The position numbers were made by a program, and so were the translations under genes. From the UHGV virus genome UHGV-0202386: a stretch of DNA of 15,272 bases. One strand, written 5' to 3'. Positions 304-7,571 of the stretch are shown piece by piece. How positions within the stretch are numbered: position 1 is the first letter of the stretch; each line of letters starts with the position of its first letter. The notes beneath the pieces are model-generated. The model did no database searches, was not told the DNA's origin, and saw only the letters and a program-made list of their open reading frames with translations. Source of the stretch: a virus.

Positions 304-1533
304 GTGAGCAGAGCGCTTAACAAACTGAGCGATACATTGTTAAGAAAACTTTATGGTAAGCCAGCGGAGAAAAATACGTTCTATAGCGATGGCGGTAATC
401 TGAGCGTGAAATATTTAACATCAGGTAAATTGACCTGGTACTTCACCTACAGGGCTGGAACGGGAAGGGATACCACACCGGAACGCCTGAAGCTGGGAAA
501 CTATCCCGATCTGAGCCTTAAAGCAGCCAGGGAAAAAGCCGCAAAGTGTCGTGCATGGCTGGCAGAAGGGAAAAACCCACGTCATGAACTGAACTACACT
601 GTGCAGGAAGCGTTAAAACCCGTAACGGTTGGCGATGCGATCAGTTACTGGCTGGAAACGCACGTAAAGGAAAACCGTGTCGATTATGTATGCCTGAAAA
701 GTCGCCTGAATAATCACGTCATACAGCACATCGGTAACATGCCACTGGATAAATGCGAATTACGTCACTGGCTGGCCTGTTTTGACCGGATACGCAAAAA
801 ATCCCCCGTAACGTCTGGTCACATGATGCAGGCGTGTAAACAGGCGCTTAAGTTCTGCCGTAAACGTCGCTACGCAGTCAGTAACGTTCTGGATGATCTC
901 AACGTGGTGGACGTTGGCAAAAAGCCGGGCATAAGCGAACGCGTGCTTAGTAACAAAGAACTGGGCGAATTATTACAGGCGCTGGATAAAAAAATATTCC
1001 CGCCCTACTACAGCGCACTAATCCGCCTCCTGATTGTGTTTGGTTGCCGAACCGGAGAACTGAGGCTGTCGGAGATCAGGGAGTGGGATTTTAAGGAAAT
1101 GCTCTGGACAGTACCGAAGGAGCACAGCAAAACGAAGGTCGCCATATTCAGGCCAATACCGGAAAGCATTTTACCGTTTGTCACACGGCTGGTGGAGCAG
1201 AACCGACACACAGGGCTATTACTCGGGGAACTGAAACAGGAAGCCAGCGTGTCGCAATACGGCAGATTCACGCACAAAAAATTAAACCATCCGCACTGGT
1301 CACTACACGATATACGGCGCACGTTTACCACGATGCTGAATGATTTAGGCGTGGATCCGCATATTGTCGAACAACTCACCGCTCACCAGATGCCAGGGAT
1401 GCAGCGAGTCTATAACCACTCCCGTTATCTCGATGCGAAACGTAATGCGCTGGACATGTGGACAGAGCGGTTAGAGATACTGGCGGGTACTCACGAAAAC
1501 GTAACCACACTGCCAATAGCCAGAGAAATATAA
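304..1533 (+). CDS. int: Tyrosine recombinase / phage integrase (P4-type, with N-terminal arm-binding DUF4102-like region); GTG start
   Basis: 409-aa ORF. N-terminal pattern YSDGGNLSV..LTSGKLTWYFTYR...LKLGNYPDLSLKAAREKAAKCRAWLAEGKNP is typical of P4-family integrase arm domains. C-terminal catalytic signatures GCRTGELR, HWSLHDIRRTF, VYNHSRYLD. RBS-like GGGGGAG upstream of GTG 304. Sits next to attL. Confidence 0.9.
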   Translation: MSRALNKLSDTLLRKLYGKPAEKNTFYSDGGNLSVKYLTSGKLTWYFTYRAGTGRDTTPERLKLGNYPDLSLKAAREKAAKCRAWLAEGKNPRHELNYTVQEALKPVTVGDAISYWLETHVKENRVDYVCLKSRLNNHVIQHIGNMPLDKCELRHWLACFDRIRKKSPVTSGHMMQACKQALKFCRKRRYAVSNVLDDLNVVDVGKKPGISERVLSNKELGELLQALDKKIFPPYYSALIRLLIVFGCRTGELRLSEIREWDFKEMLWTVPKEHSKTKVAIFRPIPESILPFVTRLVEQNRHTGLLLGELKQEASVSQYGRFTHKKLNHPHWSLHDIRRTFTTMLNDLGVDPHIVEQLTAHQMPGMQRVYNHSRYLDAKRNALDMWTERLEILAGTHENVTTLPIAREI

Positions 1534-1554
1534 TTTTTTTCGTGATTTTTCAGA

Positions 1555-1620
1555 ACGGACACAACGTGGAACAACGAGACACAACGACGAACAACAAGGA
1601 ACAAAATGGGACAAGCGGAT
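1555..1620 (-). repeat. Six copies of GAACAACG-like motif exactly 10 bp apart (reverse complement of the TTGTTC motif) between int and alpA
   Basis: ACAACG at 1561, 1571, 1581; ACAACA at 1591; ACAAAA at 1601; ACAAGC at 1611. ACAACGTGGAACAA (1561-1574) is the exact reverse complement of TTGTTCCACGTTGT found at 214-227 and 15013-15026. Confidence 0.6.
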
Positions 1621-1699
1621 TAAAAATCAAACTCATTCATAACCATTTGATTTTTATATGTATACTGTTTTTTTATACACTGGCGAATCACTCTTAAAA

Positions 1700-1734
1700 A
1701 TATGTAAAAAAGGCGTAAAAGCAAAATTTTACGC
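1700..1734 (-). terminator. Candidate intrinsic terminator for leftward transcription (8-bp stem GCGTAAAA/TTTTACGC followed by a T-run on the minus strand)
   Basis: Perfect inverted repeat 1713-1720 / 1727-1734 with 6-nt loop. On the minus strand it is followed by TTTTTTACATATTTTT. The stem is AU-rich, so only moderate. Confidence 0.35.
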
Positions 1735-1871
1735 TACTACATCACAATGAATTAAAAGTATTTTTATTCTAATTACCCCATATCTGTAAAACGACCGTCA
1801 CCAATATTTGCCATTCATCACTCTAGCGGGAACAATACGACACAATAAGACACCAAATGACTCTTTGAGAA

Positions 1872-2075
1872 ATGACGGAGGCAATAGTGTTAAGCGCTGA
1901 TCGCTTTATACGTGAAAAAGAATGTCAGCAACTTACAGGCCTGAGCCGCTCATGTCGGTATCGCCTGGAGAAGACTGGACAATTCCCATCACGGCGTAAA
2001 CTCGGCGGTCGTTCCGTTGGCTGGTCTTTATCCGAAGTTCTGGCATGGAAGGACAGCCGCGAGGCAGTTCACTAA
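1872..2075 (+). CDS. alpA: AlpA-family phage transcriptional regulator / excisionase-like HTH protein
   Basis: Translation RFIREKECQQLTGLSRSCRYRLEKTGQFPSRRKLGGRSVGWSLSEVLAWK matches the AlpA/Phage_AlpA pattern (..GxSRSTIYRL...FP....LG.RSVGW..SEV..W). Alternative in-frame GTG start at 1887 is preceded by GGAGG at 1877-1881. Confidence 0.8.
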   Translation: MTEAIVLSADRFIREKECQQLTGLSRSCRYRLEKTGQFPSRRKLGGRSVGWSLSEVLAWKDSREAVH

Positions 2076-2081
2076 TCAGGC

Positions 2082-2100
2082 TGGCGGCGCACCGCCGCCA
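2082..2100 (+). other. GC-rich stem-loop (TGGCGGCG-CAC-CGCCGCCA) immediately 3' of alpA, with no U-tract
   Basis: Perfect 8-bp stem and 3-nt loop, seen directly. No T-run on either strand, so not a canonical intrinsic terminator. Confidence 0.5.
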
Positions 2101-2216
2101 CCCATCCACTAACACAGAGATCTAACCATGAATACTGGATATACGCCCGAACAGGGGCGGGGCTTCGTTCGTCCTGGTGAAACTAAAAAGCCATGTTATC
2201 GGGTATTTTCAGGCAT

Positions 2217-2287
2217 AAAAAAAGCGGCCCCGATAAGGAACCGCCTTTCTGAACAATTAACCTGCTGCGAAAAAAATGGATCAGTGC
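2217..2287 (-). ncRNA. Candidate small RNA of about 70 nt: extended -10 promoter to intrinsic terminator, in an ORF-free gap
   Basis: Minus-strand TGaTATAAT (plus 2294-2302) gives a predicted start near 2285-2287. Terminator hairpin at 2224-2248 (AAGGCGG..CCGCUU, about 11 bp with wobbles, 5-nt loop) is followed by U7 (plus A-run 2217-2223). No ORF of 60 aa or more on either strand here except the rejected long + frame. Confidence 0.3.
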
Positions 2288-2293
2288 AGGGGA

Positions 2294-2302
2294 ATTATAT
2301 CA
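2294..2302 (-). promoter_or_regulatory. Extended -10 promoter element TGaTATAAT (minus strand), no convincing -35
   Basis: Reverse complement of plus 2294-2302 reads TGATATAAT. Read directly. Confidence 0.35.
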
Positions 2303-2340
2303 ACCGTGTGGTGAAGCGCCACTATTGCCGGATAACAGGC

Positions 2341-2369
2341 AAAACAAAGGCGACCGCAAAAGGGTCGCC
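2341..2369 (-). terminator. Intrinsic terminator of the leftward RHH operon
   Basis: Perfect 7-bp stem GGCGACC/GGTCGCC (2349-2355 / 2363-2369) with 7-nt loop. On the minus strand it is followed by TTTGTTTTG (plus 2341-2348). Lies 66 nt downstream of the stop of ORF 2436-2609. Confidence 0.55.
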
Positions 2370-2435
2370 AGTGGGAACAAGGGAAAACAAAAGCATCACC
2401 AACAATGCCACATTTGCGGCTGGTGGGCAATGTGA

Positions 2436-2609
2436 TCAGTCAGATTTGGTTCGTTCCAAGGTTTGCAACGAGAGTTTTTTCCTGCGCTCTTTAAGGAATT
2501 TCTCAAGAGCAAACGAACAAGGTGCGAATCTTTCTGATTCATGCTCTATCTTTCTGCGCCGTCTTTTCCGTGTCGGTGATAATGTTTTGGTCAATTCTTT
2601 ATCGGTCAT
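2436..2609 (-). CDS. Hypothetical small basic protein (57 aa), second gene of the leftward operon
   Basis: ORF MTDKELTKTLSPTRKRRRRKIEHESERF..., AGGG 8 nt upstream of ATG 2609. An alternative ATG at 2624 has no RBS. A perfect 7-bp hairpin (2631-2637 / 2651-2657) separates it from the upstream gene. Supported mainly by the downstream terminator; no recognisable family. Confidence 0.35.
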   Translation of the reverse strand: MTDKELTKTLSPTRKRRRRKIEHESERFAPCSFALEKFLKERRKKLSLQTLERTKSD

Positions 2610-2666
2610 TGTGTTGCCCTGCATAGCAATGCGCCGTAATACCTTACACCACGGCGCTGGTGATGG

Positions 2667-2846
2667 TTACTCCTGCTCTTTGGCCTTGCGGCGCTGGCGG
2701 CGTTTGATCTCGCCTTGCATTGACGCAATGATGAATTGTGATGTGCTTTCGCCTGATTCTTTCACTGATTCCATGGCGTTTACTATTTCGTGTGGTACAC
2801 GAGCCTTTAGAGCTTGTGATTTTGCGTTTGTTGTACCCGTTGCCAT
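2667..2846 (-). CDS. Small ribbon-helix-helix (Arc/CopG-like) DNA-binding protein, candidate repressor of the divergent early promoter
   Basis: 59-aa ORF MATGTTNAKSQALKARVPHEIVNAMESVKESGESTSQFIIASMQGEIKRRQRRKAKEQE. By eye: beta strand (KARVP), helix, helix, basic tail. RBS AGAGGA upstream of ATG 2846. Faces a promoter overlapped by direct repeats. Confidence 0.65.
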   Translation of the reverse strand: MATGTTNAKSQALKARVPHEIVNAMESVKESGESTSQFIIASMQGEIKRRQRRKAKEQE

Positions 2847-2907
2847 TTCTATTCCTCTGTTGGATTGGTGGGGGACAGTATACACAGAAAAAGCACAAAT
2901 AAAACCC

Positions 2908-2948
2908 TTGACGTGGGCCACACCTAAAGCATATAGTGGGCCACACCT
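2908..2948 (+). promoter_or_regulatory. Rightward early promoter (-35 TTGACG 2908-2913, 18-bp spacer, -10 TATAGT 2932-2937) overlapped by two 13-bp direct-repeat operators GTGGGCCACACCT
   Basis: Repeat copies at 2913-2925 and 2936-2948 (perfect 13/13, 23-bp spacing), one over the -35/spacer and one over the -10/start. Sits in the divergent region between the RHH gene and the rightward ORF cluster. Confidence 0.5.
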
Positions 2949-2974
2949 TGAGATTGTCAAGGTGCATAAATGCA

Positions 2975-3009
2975 AAGCCCCGCAAGTGTCGTTACCACTC
3001 GCAGGGCTT
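2975..3009. other. Strong stem-loop in the 5' leader of the rightward operon; on the minus strand it reads as hairpin plus UUUGCAUUUAU
   Basis: AAGCCCCGCAAGTG (2975-2988) pairs with CACTCGCAGGGCTT (2996-3009) at 12 of 14 positions, 7-nt loop. No T-run on plus; T-rich tail on minus (plus 2961-2974). Confidence 0.5.
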
Positions 3010-3045
3010 CTAACCACCAACGATAGAAAGTGTATCGAGGTAGCT

Positions 3046-3252
3046 ATGAGAAATTATACCAGACACCCGCAAGGGCGGGACTCGTACAACCTGAATAAAT
3101 ACATCTGGCGTTTTATCGCCCTGAGCACGGCACAACCGCGCGTGATTACCATTGAGGCCACCAGCGAACAGGAAGCGCGTCAGCAATCTCCTGATGGCTG
3201 CGTGATGGTATTCGCTGCCCGTATTCGTCAGGGGGTACGCCATGTGCAATAA
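3046..3252 (+). CDS. Hypothetical protein (68 aa), first gene of the rightward early operon
   Basis: ATG 3046 preceded by GAGGT (3037-3041). Translation MRNYTRHPQGRDSYNLNKYIWRFIALSTAQPRVITIEATSEQEARQQSPDGCVMVFAARIRQGV. A vague resemblance to small Icd/Ash-like satellite proteins is my impression only. Confidence 0.6.
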   Translation: MRNYTRHPQGRDSYNLNKYIWRFIALSTAQPRVITIEATSEQEARQQSPDGCVMVFAARIRQGVRHVQ

Positions 3253-3938: not shown

Positions 3939-4238
3939 ATGAAACTTAAATATTCTGGCTTAACTGCCAGTGGCAACACTCACCCTAAATTTACGCGCGG
4001 CGATATTTACCGCGACCAGTACGGCGGCACGGTAATGATTAAGGGCGTGGAAGAACGGCGCGTAACCTACCGCCGTGAAGGTTACGAATATGATTGCGTG
4101 ATGCCTGTTTATCAGTTCCGGCGTGATTTTTCTCTGGTACAGACCGCGCCGCATAACGTGTCCACCAGCAACGCCAGGGCACGGGCAAACATCCAGAAGC
4201 TGAAAACCATGATTAACGGATTCAGGGGTAAAAAATGA
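3939..4238 (+). CDS. Hypothetical protein (99 aa), possibly DUF4222-like
   Basis: Motif YRDQYGGTVMIKGVEERRVTYRREGYEYDCVMPVYQFRRDF reminds me of DUF4222 proteins of enterobacterial prophages (memory only). Stop overlaps the primase start. Confidence 0.5.
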   Translation: MKLKYSGLTASGNTHPKFTRGDIYRDQYGGTVMIKGVEERRVTYRREGYEYDCVMPVYQFRRDFSLVQTAPHNVSTSNARARANIQKLKTMINGFRGKK

Positions 4239-6049
4239 AACTGGCACCGAACGTAAAACAGCAGTCACGCGGCATAAAACACAAAGAAACAGAAGTCATT
4301 ATTTTTGCGGGTAGTGATGCCTGGTCACACGCAAAACAATGGCAGGAACATGACGCGCGTATGGCCGGAGATAATGAGCCTCCTGTGTGGCTTGGGGAGC
4401 AGCAGTTATCCGAACTGGATAAGCTGCAAATTGTGCCGGAAGGCAGAAAATCCGTGCGCATATTCAGGGCCGGATATCTTGCGCCAGTAATGATAAAGGC
4501 GATTGGTCAGAAGCTGGCGGCGGCAGGCGTACAGGATGCAAATTTTTATCCTGAGGGTATGCACGGTCAGGAGGTGCAGAACTGGCGCGAATATCTGGCC
4601 CGTGAGCGCCAGAATCTTTCTGATGGTCTGGTGATTCAGCTTCCTGTTAAGAAAAAAACAGAAGACAGCGCCGCACCACTGGCGCTTAACCAGATGGGAG
4701 CAAGCCAGCGCGGCGAAGTTCTCCTGGCACATTATGGCGGTGAACTGGCGATTCATGCCGACTCTGACACTGTTCACCATTACAACGGCGTTGTATGGGA
4801 GCCGATTCAGGATAAAGAGTTACAGCGTGCTATGGCGCAGATTTTCATTGATGCGGAGATCAGCTATTCGCAGAACGCCATTAAATCGGCGGTCGATACC
4901 ATGAAGTTAAGTTTGCCTGTAATGGGGAATACAGCCCGTAACCTGATTGGATTCAGTAACGGGGTATTTGATACCAGAACAGGTAATTTTCGGGAGCATA
5001 ACAAAAACGACTGGTTGTTAATTGCCAGTGAATTACCTTTCAGCCCACCAGCAGAGGGGGAAACGCTGGCAACACATGCGCCGAATTTCTGGAAGTGGTT
5101 ACGCTGCTCGGTGGCAGAGAATGACCGCAAGACGGATCGCGTGCTGGCTGCATTATTCATGGTGCTGGCGAACCGGTACGACTGGCAGTTATTCATTGAG
5201 GTAACAGGTCCAGGGGGAAGTGGTAAAAGCGTGATGGCGGAGATTTGCACTATGCTGGCGGGTAAGGCCAACACAGTATCGGCAAGCATGAAGGCGCTGG
5301 AAGATGCAAGGGAACGCGCGTTAGTGGTTGGCTTTTCGCTGATTATCATGCCGGATATGACCCGCTACGCTGGTGATGGCGCAGGAATTAAGGCCATTAC
5401 AGGCGGTGACAAGGTGGCAATCGACCCGAAGCATAAAGCCCCCTACTCAACACGCATTCAGGCGGTCGTGCTGGCGGTGAACAATAACGCCATGTCATTC
5501 AGTGACCGCAGCGGGGGGATCTCACGTCGTCGGGTGATATTCAATTTTTCGGAGGTTGTACCGGAGAACGAGCGCGACCCCATGCTGGCAGAAAAAATAG
5601 AAGGAGAGCTGGCGGTTGTGATTCGCCATCTGCTTACTCGTTTTTCTGACCAGGACGAAGCTAAACGCCTGCTGTATGAGCAGCAGAAATCAGAAGAAGC
5701 TCTGGTGATAAAACGCGAGGGCGATTCGCTGGTGGACTTCTGTGGCTATCTCATGTCGTCGGTAATGTGTGATGGTCTGTTAGTGGGTAATGCCGAAATT
5801 ATTCCGTTCAGTCCGCGCAGGTATCTTTATCACGCCTATCTGGCATATATGAGGGCACACGGATTCGGTAAACCTGTAACACTGACGCGCTTCGGTAAAG
5901 ATATGCCGGGGGCAATGGCGGAATATGGCAGGGAGTATATAAAACGGAAAACGAAGCACGGTTTGCGTTCAAATGTGACACTGACAGAGGATTCAGAAGA
6001 CTGGATGCCATCATGTGCATCGGTCACAAATGACGACAGCAAAAATTAA
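4235..6049 (+). CDS. Replication initiator: P4-alpha-like primase / SF3 helicase (Walker A GPGGSGKS)
   Basis: 604-aa ORF. Walker A in VTGPGGSGKSVMAE, Walker B-like LIIMPDM, sensor AVVLAVNNN. Followed directly by TGTTCACC iterons, as for P4 alpha and its ori. Confidence 0.8.
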   Translation: MKLAPNVKQQSRGIKHKETEVIIFAGSDAWSHAKQWQEHDARMAGDNEPPVWLGEQQLSELDKLQIVPEGRKSVRIFRAGYLAPVMIKAIGQKLAAAGVQDANFYPEGMHGQEVQNWREYLARERQNLSDGLVIQLPVKKKTEDSAAPLALNQMGASQRGEVLLAHYGGELAIHADSDTVHHYNGVVWEPIQDKELQRAMAQIFIDAEISYSQNAIKSAVDTMKLSLPVMGNTARNLIGFSNGVFDTRTGNFREHNKNDWLLIASELPFSPPAEGETLATHAPNFWKWLRCSVAENDRKTDRVLAALFMVLANRYDWQLFIEVTGPGGSGKSVMAEICTMLAGKANTVSASMKALEDARERALVVGFSLIIMPDMTRYAGDGAGIKAITGGDKVAIDPKHKAPYSTRIQAVVLAVNNNAMSFSDRSGGISRRRVIFNFSEVVPENERDPMLAEKIEGELAVVIRHLLTRFSDQDEAKRLLYEQQKSEEALVIKREGDSLVDFCGYLMSSVMCDGLLVGNAEIIPFSPRRYLYHAYLAYMRAHGFGKPVTLTRFGKDMPGAMAEYGREYIKRKTKHGLRSNVTLTEDSEDWMPSCASVTNDDSKN

Positions 6050-6062
6050 ACTTATGGAATAA

Positions 6063-6293
6063 CTGTTCACCACTGTTCACCCTGTTATAAATATCTTTTA
6101 TATCAGTACATTATAGGGTGAACAGTTATTTGTGAACTGTTCACCAAACTATTCACTGTTCACCTTTTTGATTATTTATTGAGCTTTAAGGGTGAACAGT
6201 GGTGAACAGTTGGTGAATAGTTTTTGTGAAACTGTTCACCCCTTAACGTTATGAATAAAAAGGGAAAATCTCAAAAGGTGAACAGGTGAAGGG
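6063..6293. repeat. Origin of replication: about 11 copies of the 9-mer CTGTTCACC (P4 type-I iteron TGTTCACC) in both orientations
   Basis: Plus-orientation copies at 6063, 6073, 6137, 6156, 6232; reverse-orientation GGTGAACAG at 6117, 6191, 6201, 6277, with variants at 6212 and 6285. AT-rich spacers. Lies immediately downstream of the primase. Confidence 0.8.
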
Positions 6294-7040: not shown

Positions 7041-7571
7041 ATGACAACGCTGACCATTAACCGGAAGCCGAAAGGCATTTACGGCACGCCGCAGAAAACG
7101 ACGCAGGCGGCGCAAGAGCAGGATAAAACCACATCGGTGCATAAAGTGATACCCGGCAATCAGAACGCACAGCAGAAGCCCACAGGGGCGACACCGTGGC
7201 AGCATATGACCAAAAGGCAGCGCAAAAACCGCCGACGCGTTAACCGCCTCACTGAGATGTGGCCTGACTTATTCAGCCATAAAGCACCGAAGCCGCTTAA
7301 GGTGGGGATATTCGACGACCTGATGCAGGATATCGCCGTCAGGGGGCTGGCATTCGGGTCGGGGGTATTACGTGCGACGCTGGCATCCTATGCGCAGTCT
7401 CCGCGCTATTACCGCGCCCTGATAGCTGGTGGCGCACGTTACGACCTGAAGGGCCAGCCATGTGGGGAAGTGACACCACAGGAACAGCAGGAGGCAGAAA
7501 CACGGCTGATGGTGCTGAATGAGAAGCACAAGCGCCAGCGCCGGGCAGCAAAGGGGGATACATGCCAGTGA
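7041..7571 (+). CDS. ProQ/FinO-domain RNA-binding protein (FinO-like RNA chaperone)
   Basis: PKPLKVGIFDDLMQDIAVRG...LRATLASYAQSPRYYRALIAGGARYDLKGQPCGEVTPQEQQEA aligns by eye to the ProQ/FinO core (PLKIGIFQDL...[35 protein letters not shown]). Lys/Gln-rich N-terminal extension. RBS AGGGGAAGG. Confidence 0.8.
   Translation: MTTLTINRKPKGIYGTPQKTTQAAQEQDKTTSVHKVIPGNQNAQQKPTGATPWQHMTKRQRKNRRRVNRLTEMWPDLFSHKAPKPLKVGIFDDLMQDIAVRGLAFGSGVLRATLASYAQSPRYYRALIAGGARYDLKGQPCGEVTPQEQQEAETRLMVLNEKHKRQRRAAKGDTCQ

Follow-up and report, generated by a model that had tools for sequence, protein, structure and literature searches.

Phage-inducible chromosomal islands (PICIs) of Gram-negative bacteria display an integration zone with int and alpA, followed by a Bro zone that carries domain-swapping Bro/Ant proteins and immunity RNAs (PMC10111431). 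AlpA activates itself and the downstream genes and is switched on by helper phage, and its over-expression in EcCICFT073 leads to excision and runaway replication (2018 PICI paper). In satellite P4, eta comes after vis, the homologue of alpA, and is translationally coupled to it; translation of eta prevents termination in the immunity region, and transcripts from the late promoter (PLL) reach the replication genes (PMC10111431). The locus analyzed here is the alpA region of the UHGV virus genome UHGV-0202386, a DNA stretch of 15,272 nucleotides (nt) that was analyzed at its full length and is termed the window. Judged by its sequence, the window is a capsid-forming PICI (cf-PICI) satellite of Escherichia coli with yifB/comM as insertion site, because it carries the gene set int, AlpA, primase, capsid, portal and TerS/TerL and has ~81% identity to EcCIEDL933, the prototype cf-PICI. 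Two hairpins flank alpA, i.e. hairpin 1 in the int-alpA spacer and a GC-rich stem loop behind the gene. They are read here as punctuation of rightward int/alpA transcription, with leftward RNAs that stop short of alpA at terminators of their own; this reading is given a probability of roughly 55%. The hairpins themselves are ordinary; of more interest is the sequence that follows the GC hairpin.

Relatives were obtained by an IMG/VR search with the AlpA protein, which gave 69 loci, and E. coli chromosomal loci were added. A search of genome contigs with AlpA gave four loci, three of them too distant to align, and the IMG/VR loci were used instead. The int-alpA spacer and alpA are represented by 57 distinct sequences with 76%–100% identity to the window. 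These 57 relatives share descent, and a number of variants should not be taken as a number of independent events. Positions of all features are in Table 1.

The hairpin between int and alpA

Hairpin 1 is located 180 nt past the int stop codon and ~110 nt ahead of the alpA start site. Its arms, GCGTAAAA (1713–1720) and TTTTACGC (1727–1734), form eight base pairs (bp), three of which are G-C, with a loop of 6 nt. A previous sequence-only reading of this DNA placed a hairpin at 1713–1734 with its U-tract on the minus strand, and this is what is found: the minus-strand tail CTTTTTTACA has a U6 tract, and the terminator scan calls the minus strand. The U tract directly 3' of the stem on the minus strand reads CUUUUUUACA; the core stem has -7.9 kcal/mol, which is at the weak end of the terminator range. 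Folding of hairpin 1 in the window gives -10.8 kcal/mol on the minus strand (z -3.6) and -11.3 kcal/mol on the plus strand (z -5.0). The plus-strand tail in the window, UACUACAU, has no U tract.

Every variant retains a hairpin at this position (15 core variants, 57 distinct relatives). The plus-side tail in most relatives is TTTGTATT or TTTGCATC, so that a U tract (UUUGUAUU or UUUGCAUC) that is absent in the window is found 3' of the hairpin on the plus strand. A more distant group reads GAAAAAAGGCATGAAA-CAATA-TTTTATGCCTTTGTATT, i.e. an A tract, a stem loop and a U-rich tract. Across the family, hairpin 1 looks like a bidirectional-type intrinsic terminator.

Base changes in the stem display a strand polarity. 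One stem pair is G:C in one group and A:T in the other, and the intermediate GGCGT...ATGCC has G.T, which can pair in RNA of the plus strand, whereas the minus strand has C.A. Several other variants have one to three additional G.T positions with this plus-favouring polarity, and only two have the opposite polarity. When the 15 core variants were folded on both strands, the mean was -8.9 kcal/mol for the plus strand vs -7.1 kcal/mol for the minus strand; the plus strand is the more stable in 10 of the 15, and one variant is without any minus-strand fold. The leftward terminator at 2250..2217, with -18.0 minus vs -10.7 plus, served as calibrator of strand bias. The tolerance of G.T pairs points to an RNA helix rather than a DNA palindrome. 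Hairpin 1 was assessed by per-sequence folding without a formal covariation statistic; RNAalifold gives almost nothing, since MAFFT sets the left arms of the two groups one column apart.

Two further elements are present to the left of hairpin 1. Distant relatives have a second short palindrome just left of the A tract, aligned to window positions 1688–1705 (e.g. 1825–1842 of locus L080). It covaries (CTCTTTAAAGAG, CGCTTTAAAGCG, CGCGTTAAAGCG) and is degenerate in the window. In addition, a block at window positions 1664–1692, ACTG(G/T)TTTTTTATACA.T.GCGAATCAC, is kept in all relatives.

The alpA gene and its promoter

The alpA promoter, TTGCCA-17-(A/C)ACAAT, is found in all 57 distinct relatives. 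In EDL933 the main alpA transcription start site (TSS) determined by Cappable-seq is at 1681879 (PMC10469882). This position maps 8 nt past the homologous -10 sequence, 44 nt ahead of the GTG start and ~100 nt downstream of the hairpin. The EDL933 int homologue has a Cappable-seq TSS 41 nt upstream, which is present in nearly all conditions (PMC10469882). The GTG start of alpA in the window is also the start annotated in relatives by the Prokaryotic Genome Annotation Pipeline (PGAP); the stop codon is at 2073–2075.

alpA would be the first cistron of a rightward transcription unit. Hairpin 1 most likely keeps constitutive int transcription out of the master switch alpA. Such insulation is plausible because a constitutive int transcript comes near an autoactivating alpA, over-expression of which triggers excision and replication. 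Hairpin 1 would also stop stray leftward RNA before int, and in the window this is the role it would have, if it is active.

Three repeats phased by 10 bp cover the -10 sequence and the start site of the alpA promoter. They belong to a motif, G[GA][AC]AC[AC]A, that starts at 1829, 1839 and 1849 and again behind int at 1558, 1568, 1578 and 1598 (1558–1604). Inverted copies are present near both island ends, at 203, 213, 15002, 15012 and 15022. The motif occurs 32 times in the whole window vs 14.7 expected and is clearly clustered. The phased repeats are candidate sites for AlpA (excisionase-type) or for Int (arm-type), which would link excision with alpA autoregulation.

When all PDB chains were searched with phmmer (E up to 1), the nearest solved relative of the window AlpA was 8c3t, labelled "AlpA family phage regulatory protein". 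The same search bears on a function of AlpA as antiterminator, as in Pseudomonas aeruginosa AlpA, with the hairpins as its targets. This candidate was set aside, as a sequence relationship was not detected: 8c3t was the only match, and no chain labelled as the P. aeruginosa AlpA of the published RNA polymerase complexes was among the phmmer matches in the PDB at E up to 1.

The GC stem loop behind alpA

The GC stem pairs TGGCGGCG (2082–2089) with CGCCGCCA (2093–2100) around the loop CAC, and it begins 7 nt past the alpA stop codon. The sequence-only reading described it correctly as a perfect 8-bp GC stem that has no U-tract. The plus tail is CCCAUCCACU and the minus tail GCCUGAUUAG, neither strand displays a U tract, and the terminator scan does not list the structure. 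Folding gives -18.5 kcal/mol (z -4.6). The stem is present as a single copy in the window, which ruled out a repetitive extragenic palindromic (REP)-like repeat.

In the relatives, CTGGCGGC-loop-GCCGCCA is found directly behind alpA in all variants. The flanks vary (TAATCAGG, TAAAAAGA, TAATCACG) and so does the loop, i.e. ACACA, ACGCA and ATACA, and the window has GCACC. Among 12 distinct variants, the consensus stem of 7 bp hardly varies: there are no two-sided changes, two one-sided changes are kept as plus-strand G.U, and one breaks the pairing. The spacer that follows (2101–2127) is C-rich and G-poor, with 11 C and 2 G in 27 nt, and leads to a conserved ATG at 2128.

The GC stem is probably non-terminating because it has no U tract, and it would let RNA polymerase pass. 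Stable stem loops that lack a U tract are typically found at the processed ends of transcripts that were cleaved or terminated by Rho. The GC stem most likely marks and protects the 3' end of an alpA-only RNA after cleavage or Rho termination downstream. It is located between two plus-strand cistrons, and the proposal that the two hairpins bracket an antisense transcript does not fit this position.

Leftward transcription and alternative readings of the hairpins

Leftward RNA 1 has a perfect extended -10 promoter, TGATATAAT, at 2302..2294 on the minus strand, and the predicted start is at ~2287. The leftward small-RNA promoter that had been proposed at 2294–2302 is thereby borne out, and it is kept in every relative that has this ~150-bp segment. 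The RNA 1 terminator, GGCGGUUCC-UUAUC-GGGGCCGC-U7, has its stem at 2244..2224 and the U7 tail at 2223..2217 and is present in nearly all relatives. In the window the terminator 2250..2217 has -19.1 kcal/mol with its U7 tail. Variants average -18.0 kcal/mol on the minus strand vs -10.7 kcal/mol on the plus strand, the minus strand being more stable in 13 of 14. The relatives display U.G pairs (C.A on the plus strand) as well as compensatory variants. The second leftward terminator, that of the leftward gene pair, has compensatory stems among relatives, i.e. GGCGACC/GGTCGCC, GGCCACC/GGTGGCC and TGCGACC/GGTCGCA.

The ~150-bp segment that includes the RNA 1 promoter and the terminator 2369..2349 is missing from the O157-type islands, where the U7 terminator would close the leftward genes directly. 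Two described small RNAs (sRNAs) were considered for RNA 1. Esr41 of enterohemorrhagic E. coli was dropped, as it sits in another island, SpLE1/OI-43, and the Pas sRNA (preprint) is unrelated. Neither hairpin and neither leftward RNA is matched by a known RNA family in Rfam at E up to 1. The region 1400–3200 as a whole has seven terminator-like sites vs 2.1 expected from shuffles.

Both leftward units thus have their own terminator before alpA, and the RNA from 2302..2294 is predicted to stop at ~2217. This end is 141 nt from the alpA stop codon and RNA 1 does not overlap alpA; it is antisense to codons ~30–53 of the open reading frame (ORF) that follows alpA, described below. Transcription of the opposite strand across alpA, which the sequence-only reading had suggested from the two hairpins and the leftward promoter, would proceed from the right of alpA up to hairpin 1 and damp alpA by antisense pairing or by collision of polymerases. 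This is unlikely, although some antisense read-through at a low level may occur. It would be in keeping with the real leftward promoter at 2302..2294, with terminators that are never 100% efficient, with the canonical U tract of hairpin 1 that is found only on the minus strand in the window, and with the A6 template that is invariant in all relatives. However, two conserved leftward terminators stand between every predicted leftward promoter and alpA, and the nearer one is strong. From 2217 to 1735, no minus-strand promoter exceeds 9 of 12; the sole hit of the promoter scan is TTTACA-19-AAAAAT (1790..1760, 9 of 12). Inside alpA, no minus-strand promoter above 8 of 12 is conserved in position in the relatives scanned, and the minus strand of 1735–2217 has no ORF of note. 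The wobble pairs of hairpin 1 also mostly suit the plus strand. A cis-antisense RNA on alpA, i.e. an opposite-strand promoter with an overlapping RNA, was not found.

That sole promoter hit is the basis of a second and less probable alternative, in which hairpin 1 is the terminator of a leftward RNA of ~45–50 nt that starts from the weak promoter TTTACA (1789..1784), 19-nt spacer, AAAAAT (1765..1760). Such an RNA would account for the invariant minus-strand U6. TTTACAG does not vary, and 37 of the 57 distinct relatives have a TAAAAT or AAAAAT hexamer at the same place. The promoter is nevertheless marginal (8–9 of 12 with a 19-nt spacer) and lacks the extended -10 that both clear leftward RNAs display. 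The AT-rich block scores on the plus strand too, and in most variants A.C mismatches weaken the stem on the minus strand.

It is more doubtful still that one or both hairpins act as DNA, i.e. as palindromic sites for a regulator such as AlpA, Int or a protein of the helper phage. In favour, the GC stem has a conserved sequence without compensatory change, and the hairpin 1 spacer has other conserved blocks and in relatives the covarying palindrome noted above. However, hairpin 1 tolerates G.T changes that break a DNA palindrome yet keep an RNA helix, its flanking A and U tracts are a terminator requirement, and the repeats that resemble protein sites, G[GA][AC]AC[AC]A, are direct, phased by 10 bp and non-palindromic.

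Several observations weigh against hairpins that punctuate rightward transcription. The A6 run is invariant in 57/57; as the template for U6 on the minus strand, it would suit selection for termination of leftward RNA. In the window's own sub-lineage (TACTACAT, TACTGCAT) the plus side has lost its U tract. The stem of hairpin 1 has only three G-C pairs and is weak on both strands, and its wobble asymmetry amounts to roughly 6 vs 2 substitutions in related sequences. As to the GC stem, compensatory changes are absent and conservation alone backs the structure. The E. coli 042-type PICI is without the GC stem, which shows that the stem is not essential to the layout.

Punctuation of rightward int/alpA transcription is still the favoured explanation. 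Ending of leftward transcription at hairpin 1, as first proposed, agrees with the minus-strand U tract; however, no minus-strand unit is predicted to end there and the wobbles are mostly of the plus type. The more general proposal of convergent or antisense control holds in that leftward signals are present near alpA and antisense is a theme of the region, but not in its geometry, as the sequence gives no support for an RNA that runs back across alpA to hairpin 1. As predicted from the sequence, the control is aimed at the read-through transcript of alpA and not at alpA. RNA 1 and RNA 2 (see below), both predicted RNAs, each have their own promoter, their own terminator, a strand-specific conserved structure and an overlap with a plus-strand RNA. 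Little is to be expected from probes for antisense alpA RNA.

The bridging open reading frame

A stop-free ORF starts at the conserved ATG behind the GC stem and bridges the interval between alpA and the icd-like gene; it has the frame and the stop codon of that gene. It is antisense to RNA 1, RNA 2, both leftward genes and the divergent promoter region. Over 300 codons of the window this frame has no stops vs 14 and 20 in the other plus frames. At the off-frame rate of the window (34 stops per 600 codons), the chance of no stops in 306 codons is ~2e-8. The first 300 codons are stop-free in 46 of 67 distinct relatives, and the other two plus frames average 14.6 and 21.1 stops.

The icd-like start can be placed in 59 distinct loci. 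In all 59 the ORF either crosses this start in frame (38 loci) or stops near it (21 loci); in the latter the end of the ORF is within ~30 nt of the icd-like start, with the exception of locus L018, where it is 176 nt short. The alpA-to-icd interval varies from 536 to 1218 nt and carries differing mosaic leftward modules. In both main leftward gene families the third codon positions face those of the bridging ORF on the other strand (56/57 and 50/51), which is the least constraining phase for two overlapping frames.

The bridging ORF has no Pfam domain. An excess of synonymous changes is found in codons 1–17 only, where these are 42% of the changes vs 25% expected. The O157 counterpart, with 48% identity, is annotated by PGAP as a hypothetical protein of 247 amino acids (aa). 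In three relatives (L012-14) the same start heads a genuine AntA antirepressor gene. E. coli 042 represents an independent PICI lineage with a different alpA allele and spacer, and it has an equivalent ORF of 295 codons. This ORF starts 10 nt past alpA behind the strong Shine-Dalgarno sequence AGGGGGG and ends 13 nt inside the icd-like gene. The window spacer between alpA and the ORF has 52 nt, the stem loop and merely a weak GAG ahead of the ATG. The canonical TSS table of EDL933 has no entry between alpA and the capsid gene (PMC10469882).

Two other potential structures were noted in this region. A stem that encloses the ATG of the bridging ORF (ATCCA/TGGAT; TCAATC/GATTGA in relatives) has only -2 to -5 kcal/mol, is broken in recombinant types and was not used. 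Within the ORF, and antisense to the YlcI/YnfO gene, a terminator-like hairpin of seven pairs is found at 2798–2818 on the plus strand (tail ATTTTGCGTT, z -1.6); it may be due to chance.

On induction, transcripts from the alpA promoter would be translated through the bridging ORF and would in this way extend into the replication operon, even though the leftward module and the antisense RNAs oppose them.

The icd-like gene and leftward RNA 2

The icd-like gene is the first of the replication operon. Leftward RNA 2, a candidate cis-antisense RNA, has a perfect extended -10 promoter, TGGTATAAT, at 3061..3053 on the minus strand, with a predicted start at ~3046, which is the position of the icd-like ATG. 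Two stem loops are present, at 3046..3011 and at 3010..2974, the latter with a long stem and a U-rich tail. RNA 2 is antisense to the icd-like leader, Shine-Dalgarno sequence and ATG, and its first stem loop is complementary to the Shine-Dalgarno sequence and the ATG.

The structure of RNA 2 is strongly strand specific. Positions 3050..2965 fold at -40.1 kcal/mol on the minus strand (z -7.0) vs -22.2 kcal/mol on the plus strand. In all 38 distinct variants the minus strand is the more stable one (means -45.2 vs -31.2 kcal/mol). In a MAFFT alignment of 31 distinct sequences, 8 of the 13 pairs have compensatory changes and 98.8% of the cells pair. Not one of 500 shuffles does as well on any of the five measures, and pairing is 38%–56% when the register is slid. 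The RefSeq records examined have no annotated RNA gene at this locus.

Two copies of GTGGGCCACACCT, at 2912–2924 and 2935–2947, bracket the -10 sequence of the rightward promoter ahead of the icd-like gene, and each contains the palindrome GTGG-G-CCAC. These repeats look like operators for a regulator encoded leftward.

A tentative proposal can be made for the switch as a whole, namely that PICI induction overrides antisense-RNA immunity by means of coupled translation. In the quiescent state the leftward YlcI/YnfO module and the antisense RNA that masks the icd-like ribosome-binding site would keep the replication operon off, and an alpA-only RNA would at rest have its 3' boundary at the GC stem. 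When the helper phage turns on alpA, transcripts from the alpA promoter would pass the GC stem. Ribosomes on the bridging ORF, which appears unconstrained in sequence, would shield the transcripts from Rho as these proceed head-on through the leftward module. In the window, the bridging ORF would run in frame through the masked icd-like start.

The island and its other features

The int and alpA genes occupy the left end of this window, which also has a primase gene and its own capsid, portal and terminase genes, and there is synteny with the EDL933-type island. The EcCIEDL933-type island of E. coli O157:H7 has the identical gene order; the ~81% identity is over the int/alpA region. Bases 1–120 of the window are the 5' part of yifB/comM, and the closest E. 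coli relative has an interrupted Mg-chelatase gene beside ilvLXG at the same place. Further genes in the window encode SSB, a ProQ/FinO-family protein, the major capsid protein, portal, HNH, TerS and TerL.

Table 1. Positions of the genes, signals and predicted RNAs discussed in the text
Feature	Position (nt)	Strand	Basis or remarks
Tyrosine integrase gene int	304..1533	+	Pfam Arm-DNA-bind_3 and Phage_integrase; PGAP in relatives
Hairpin 1 (A6 tract 1706–1711, stem loop 1712/1713–1734/1735)	1705..1735		Intrinsic-terminator-type element
alpA promoter TTGCCA (1808–1813), 17-nt spacer, AACAAT (1831–1836), start ~A1844	1808..1844	+	Scan
Three 10-bp-phased repeats GGAACAATAC GACACAATAA GACACCAAAT	1829..1858	+	Over -10 and start site of alpA promoter
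alpA, 62 aa	1887..2075	+	GTG start, GGAGG Shine-Dalgarno; Pfam Phage_AlpA PF05930, 3.4e-18
GC stem loop between alpA and downstream ORF	2082..2100	+	Folding and conservation
Stop-free bridging ORF, 374 codons	2128..3252	+	Conserved ATG, 52 nt after alpA, 27 nt after GC stem
Leftward small RNA 1 (predicted), ~71 nt	2217..2302	-	Extended -10, terminator, conservation
Terminator of leftward gene pair	2339..2369	-	Scan; hairpin 2369..2349, tail TTTGTTTTGC
Leftward gene, 62-aa basic protein	2436–2624	-	Annotated by PGAP in relatives
Leftward gene, YlcI/YnfO family	2667–2846	-	NCBIfam YlcI_YnfO_N, 8e-19; PGAP in relatives
Rightward promoter TTGACG-18-TATAGT (2908–2937) and repeats	2908..2947	+	Scan; repeats read from sequence
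Leftward small RNA 2 (candidate cis-antisense RNA), ~80 nt	2962..3061	-	Extended -10, folding, covariation
icd-like gene, first of replication operon	3046..3252	+	NCBIfam phage_ICD_like, 1e-19
D5/primase-type replication protein	4235–6049		Pfam
Chi sites GCTGGTGG	1188, 2419, 3158, 3345, 4162, 5045, 5728, 6608, 6634, 7425, 9587, 13708, 14900

The ProQ/FinO-family RNA-chaperone gene (7041–7571, plus strand, Pfam 4.8e-24) is in an accessory slot after SSB, which in the O157-type island is occupied by a PerC-family regulator. The encoded protein may be a partner of the antisense RNAs of the island. Downstream of the primase gene, positions 6090–6270 display dense direct and inverted repeats of the type GGTGAACAG, and this region is probably the replication origin. 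An Rfam search of the whole window (E up to 1) gave only spurious matches to plant microRNA precursors, which fall in this iteron region.

Chi sites are abundant. There are 13 in the 15.3-kb window (8 on the plus strand and 5 on the minus strand) vs 0.47 expected from shuffles, and the O157 EcCIEDL933-type island has 12 per 14.5 kb. The copy at 2419–2426 is kept across relatives. The excess may reflect protection from RecBCD in a satellite without Gam.

Comparison with known systems

With respect to how AlpA turns on a Gram-negative PICI, the transcript map now places the alpA start site, the putative insulating hairpin and the downstream stem loop. The interval between alpA and replication is always bridged by an ORF that opposes a repressor module and two predicted antisense RNAs, which provides a testable P4-like switch mechanism. 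Terminators, stem loops or antisense RNAs around alpA are not described in the PICI literature examined.

Hairpin 1 in most relatives is similar to bidirectional intrinsic terminators in that it has an A tract and a U-rich tract and is located between transcription units. Unlike these, it is between co-directional genes, its stem is AT-rich (3–4 G-C) and the plus-strand U tract is lost in the window.

Lambda OOP against cII, P22 Sar against ant, and FinP against traJ with FinO are small cis-antisense RNAs of regulatory operons. The two leftward RNAs of the window are comparable to these: they are short (70–80 nt), have their own promoter and a strong terminator and are directed against a regulatory operon, and a ProQ/FinO protein is encoded in the island. 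The comparison does not extend to alpA, as neither RNA overlaps it; they are complementary to the bridging ORF and to the region of the icd-like start.

The order and orientation of genes in the window agree with the integration zone and Bro zone of Gram-negative PICIs, and the bridging ORF is located exactly at the Bro zone. Some relatives carry a true gene of the AntA/Bro network as the ORF that follows alpA.

The closest parallel in position is with vis and eta of P4. The two systems differ in several respects. In the window 52 nt and the GC stem loop separate alpA from the ORF, and no RNA of the CI/C4/isrK type is found in the window (Rfam, both strands, E up to 1). The ORF of the window lies opposite a leftward protein module (YlcI/YnfO), and it is faced by predicted cis-antisense RNAs with promoters and terminators of their own. 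However, as in P4, an ORF that follows an AlpA homologue spans an immunity-type region up to the replication operon, and this is so in 59 of 59 loci. The bridging ORF thus resembles eta in position, and by analogy its translation may protect the transcript from Rho.

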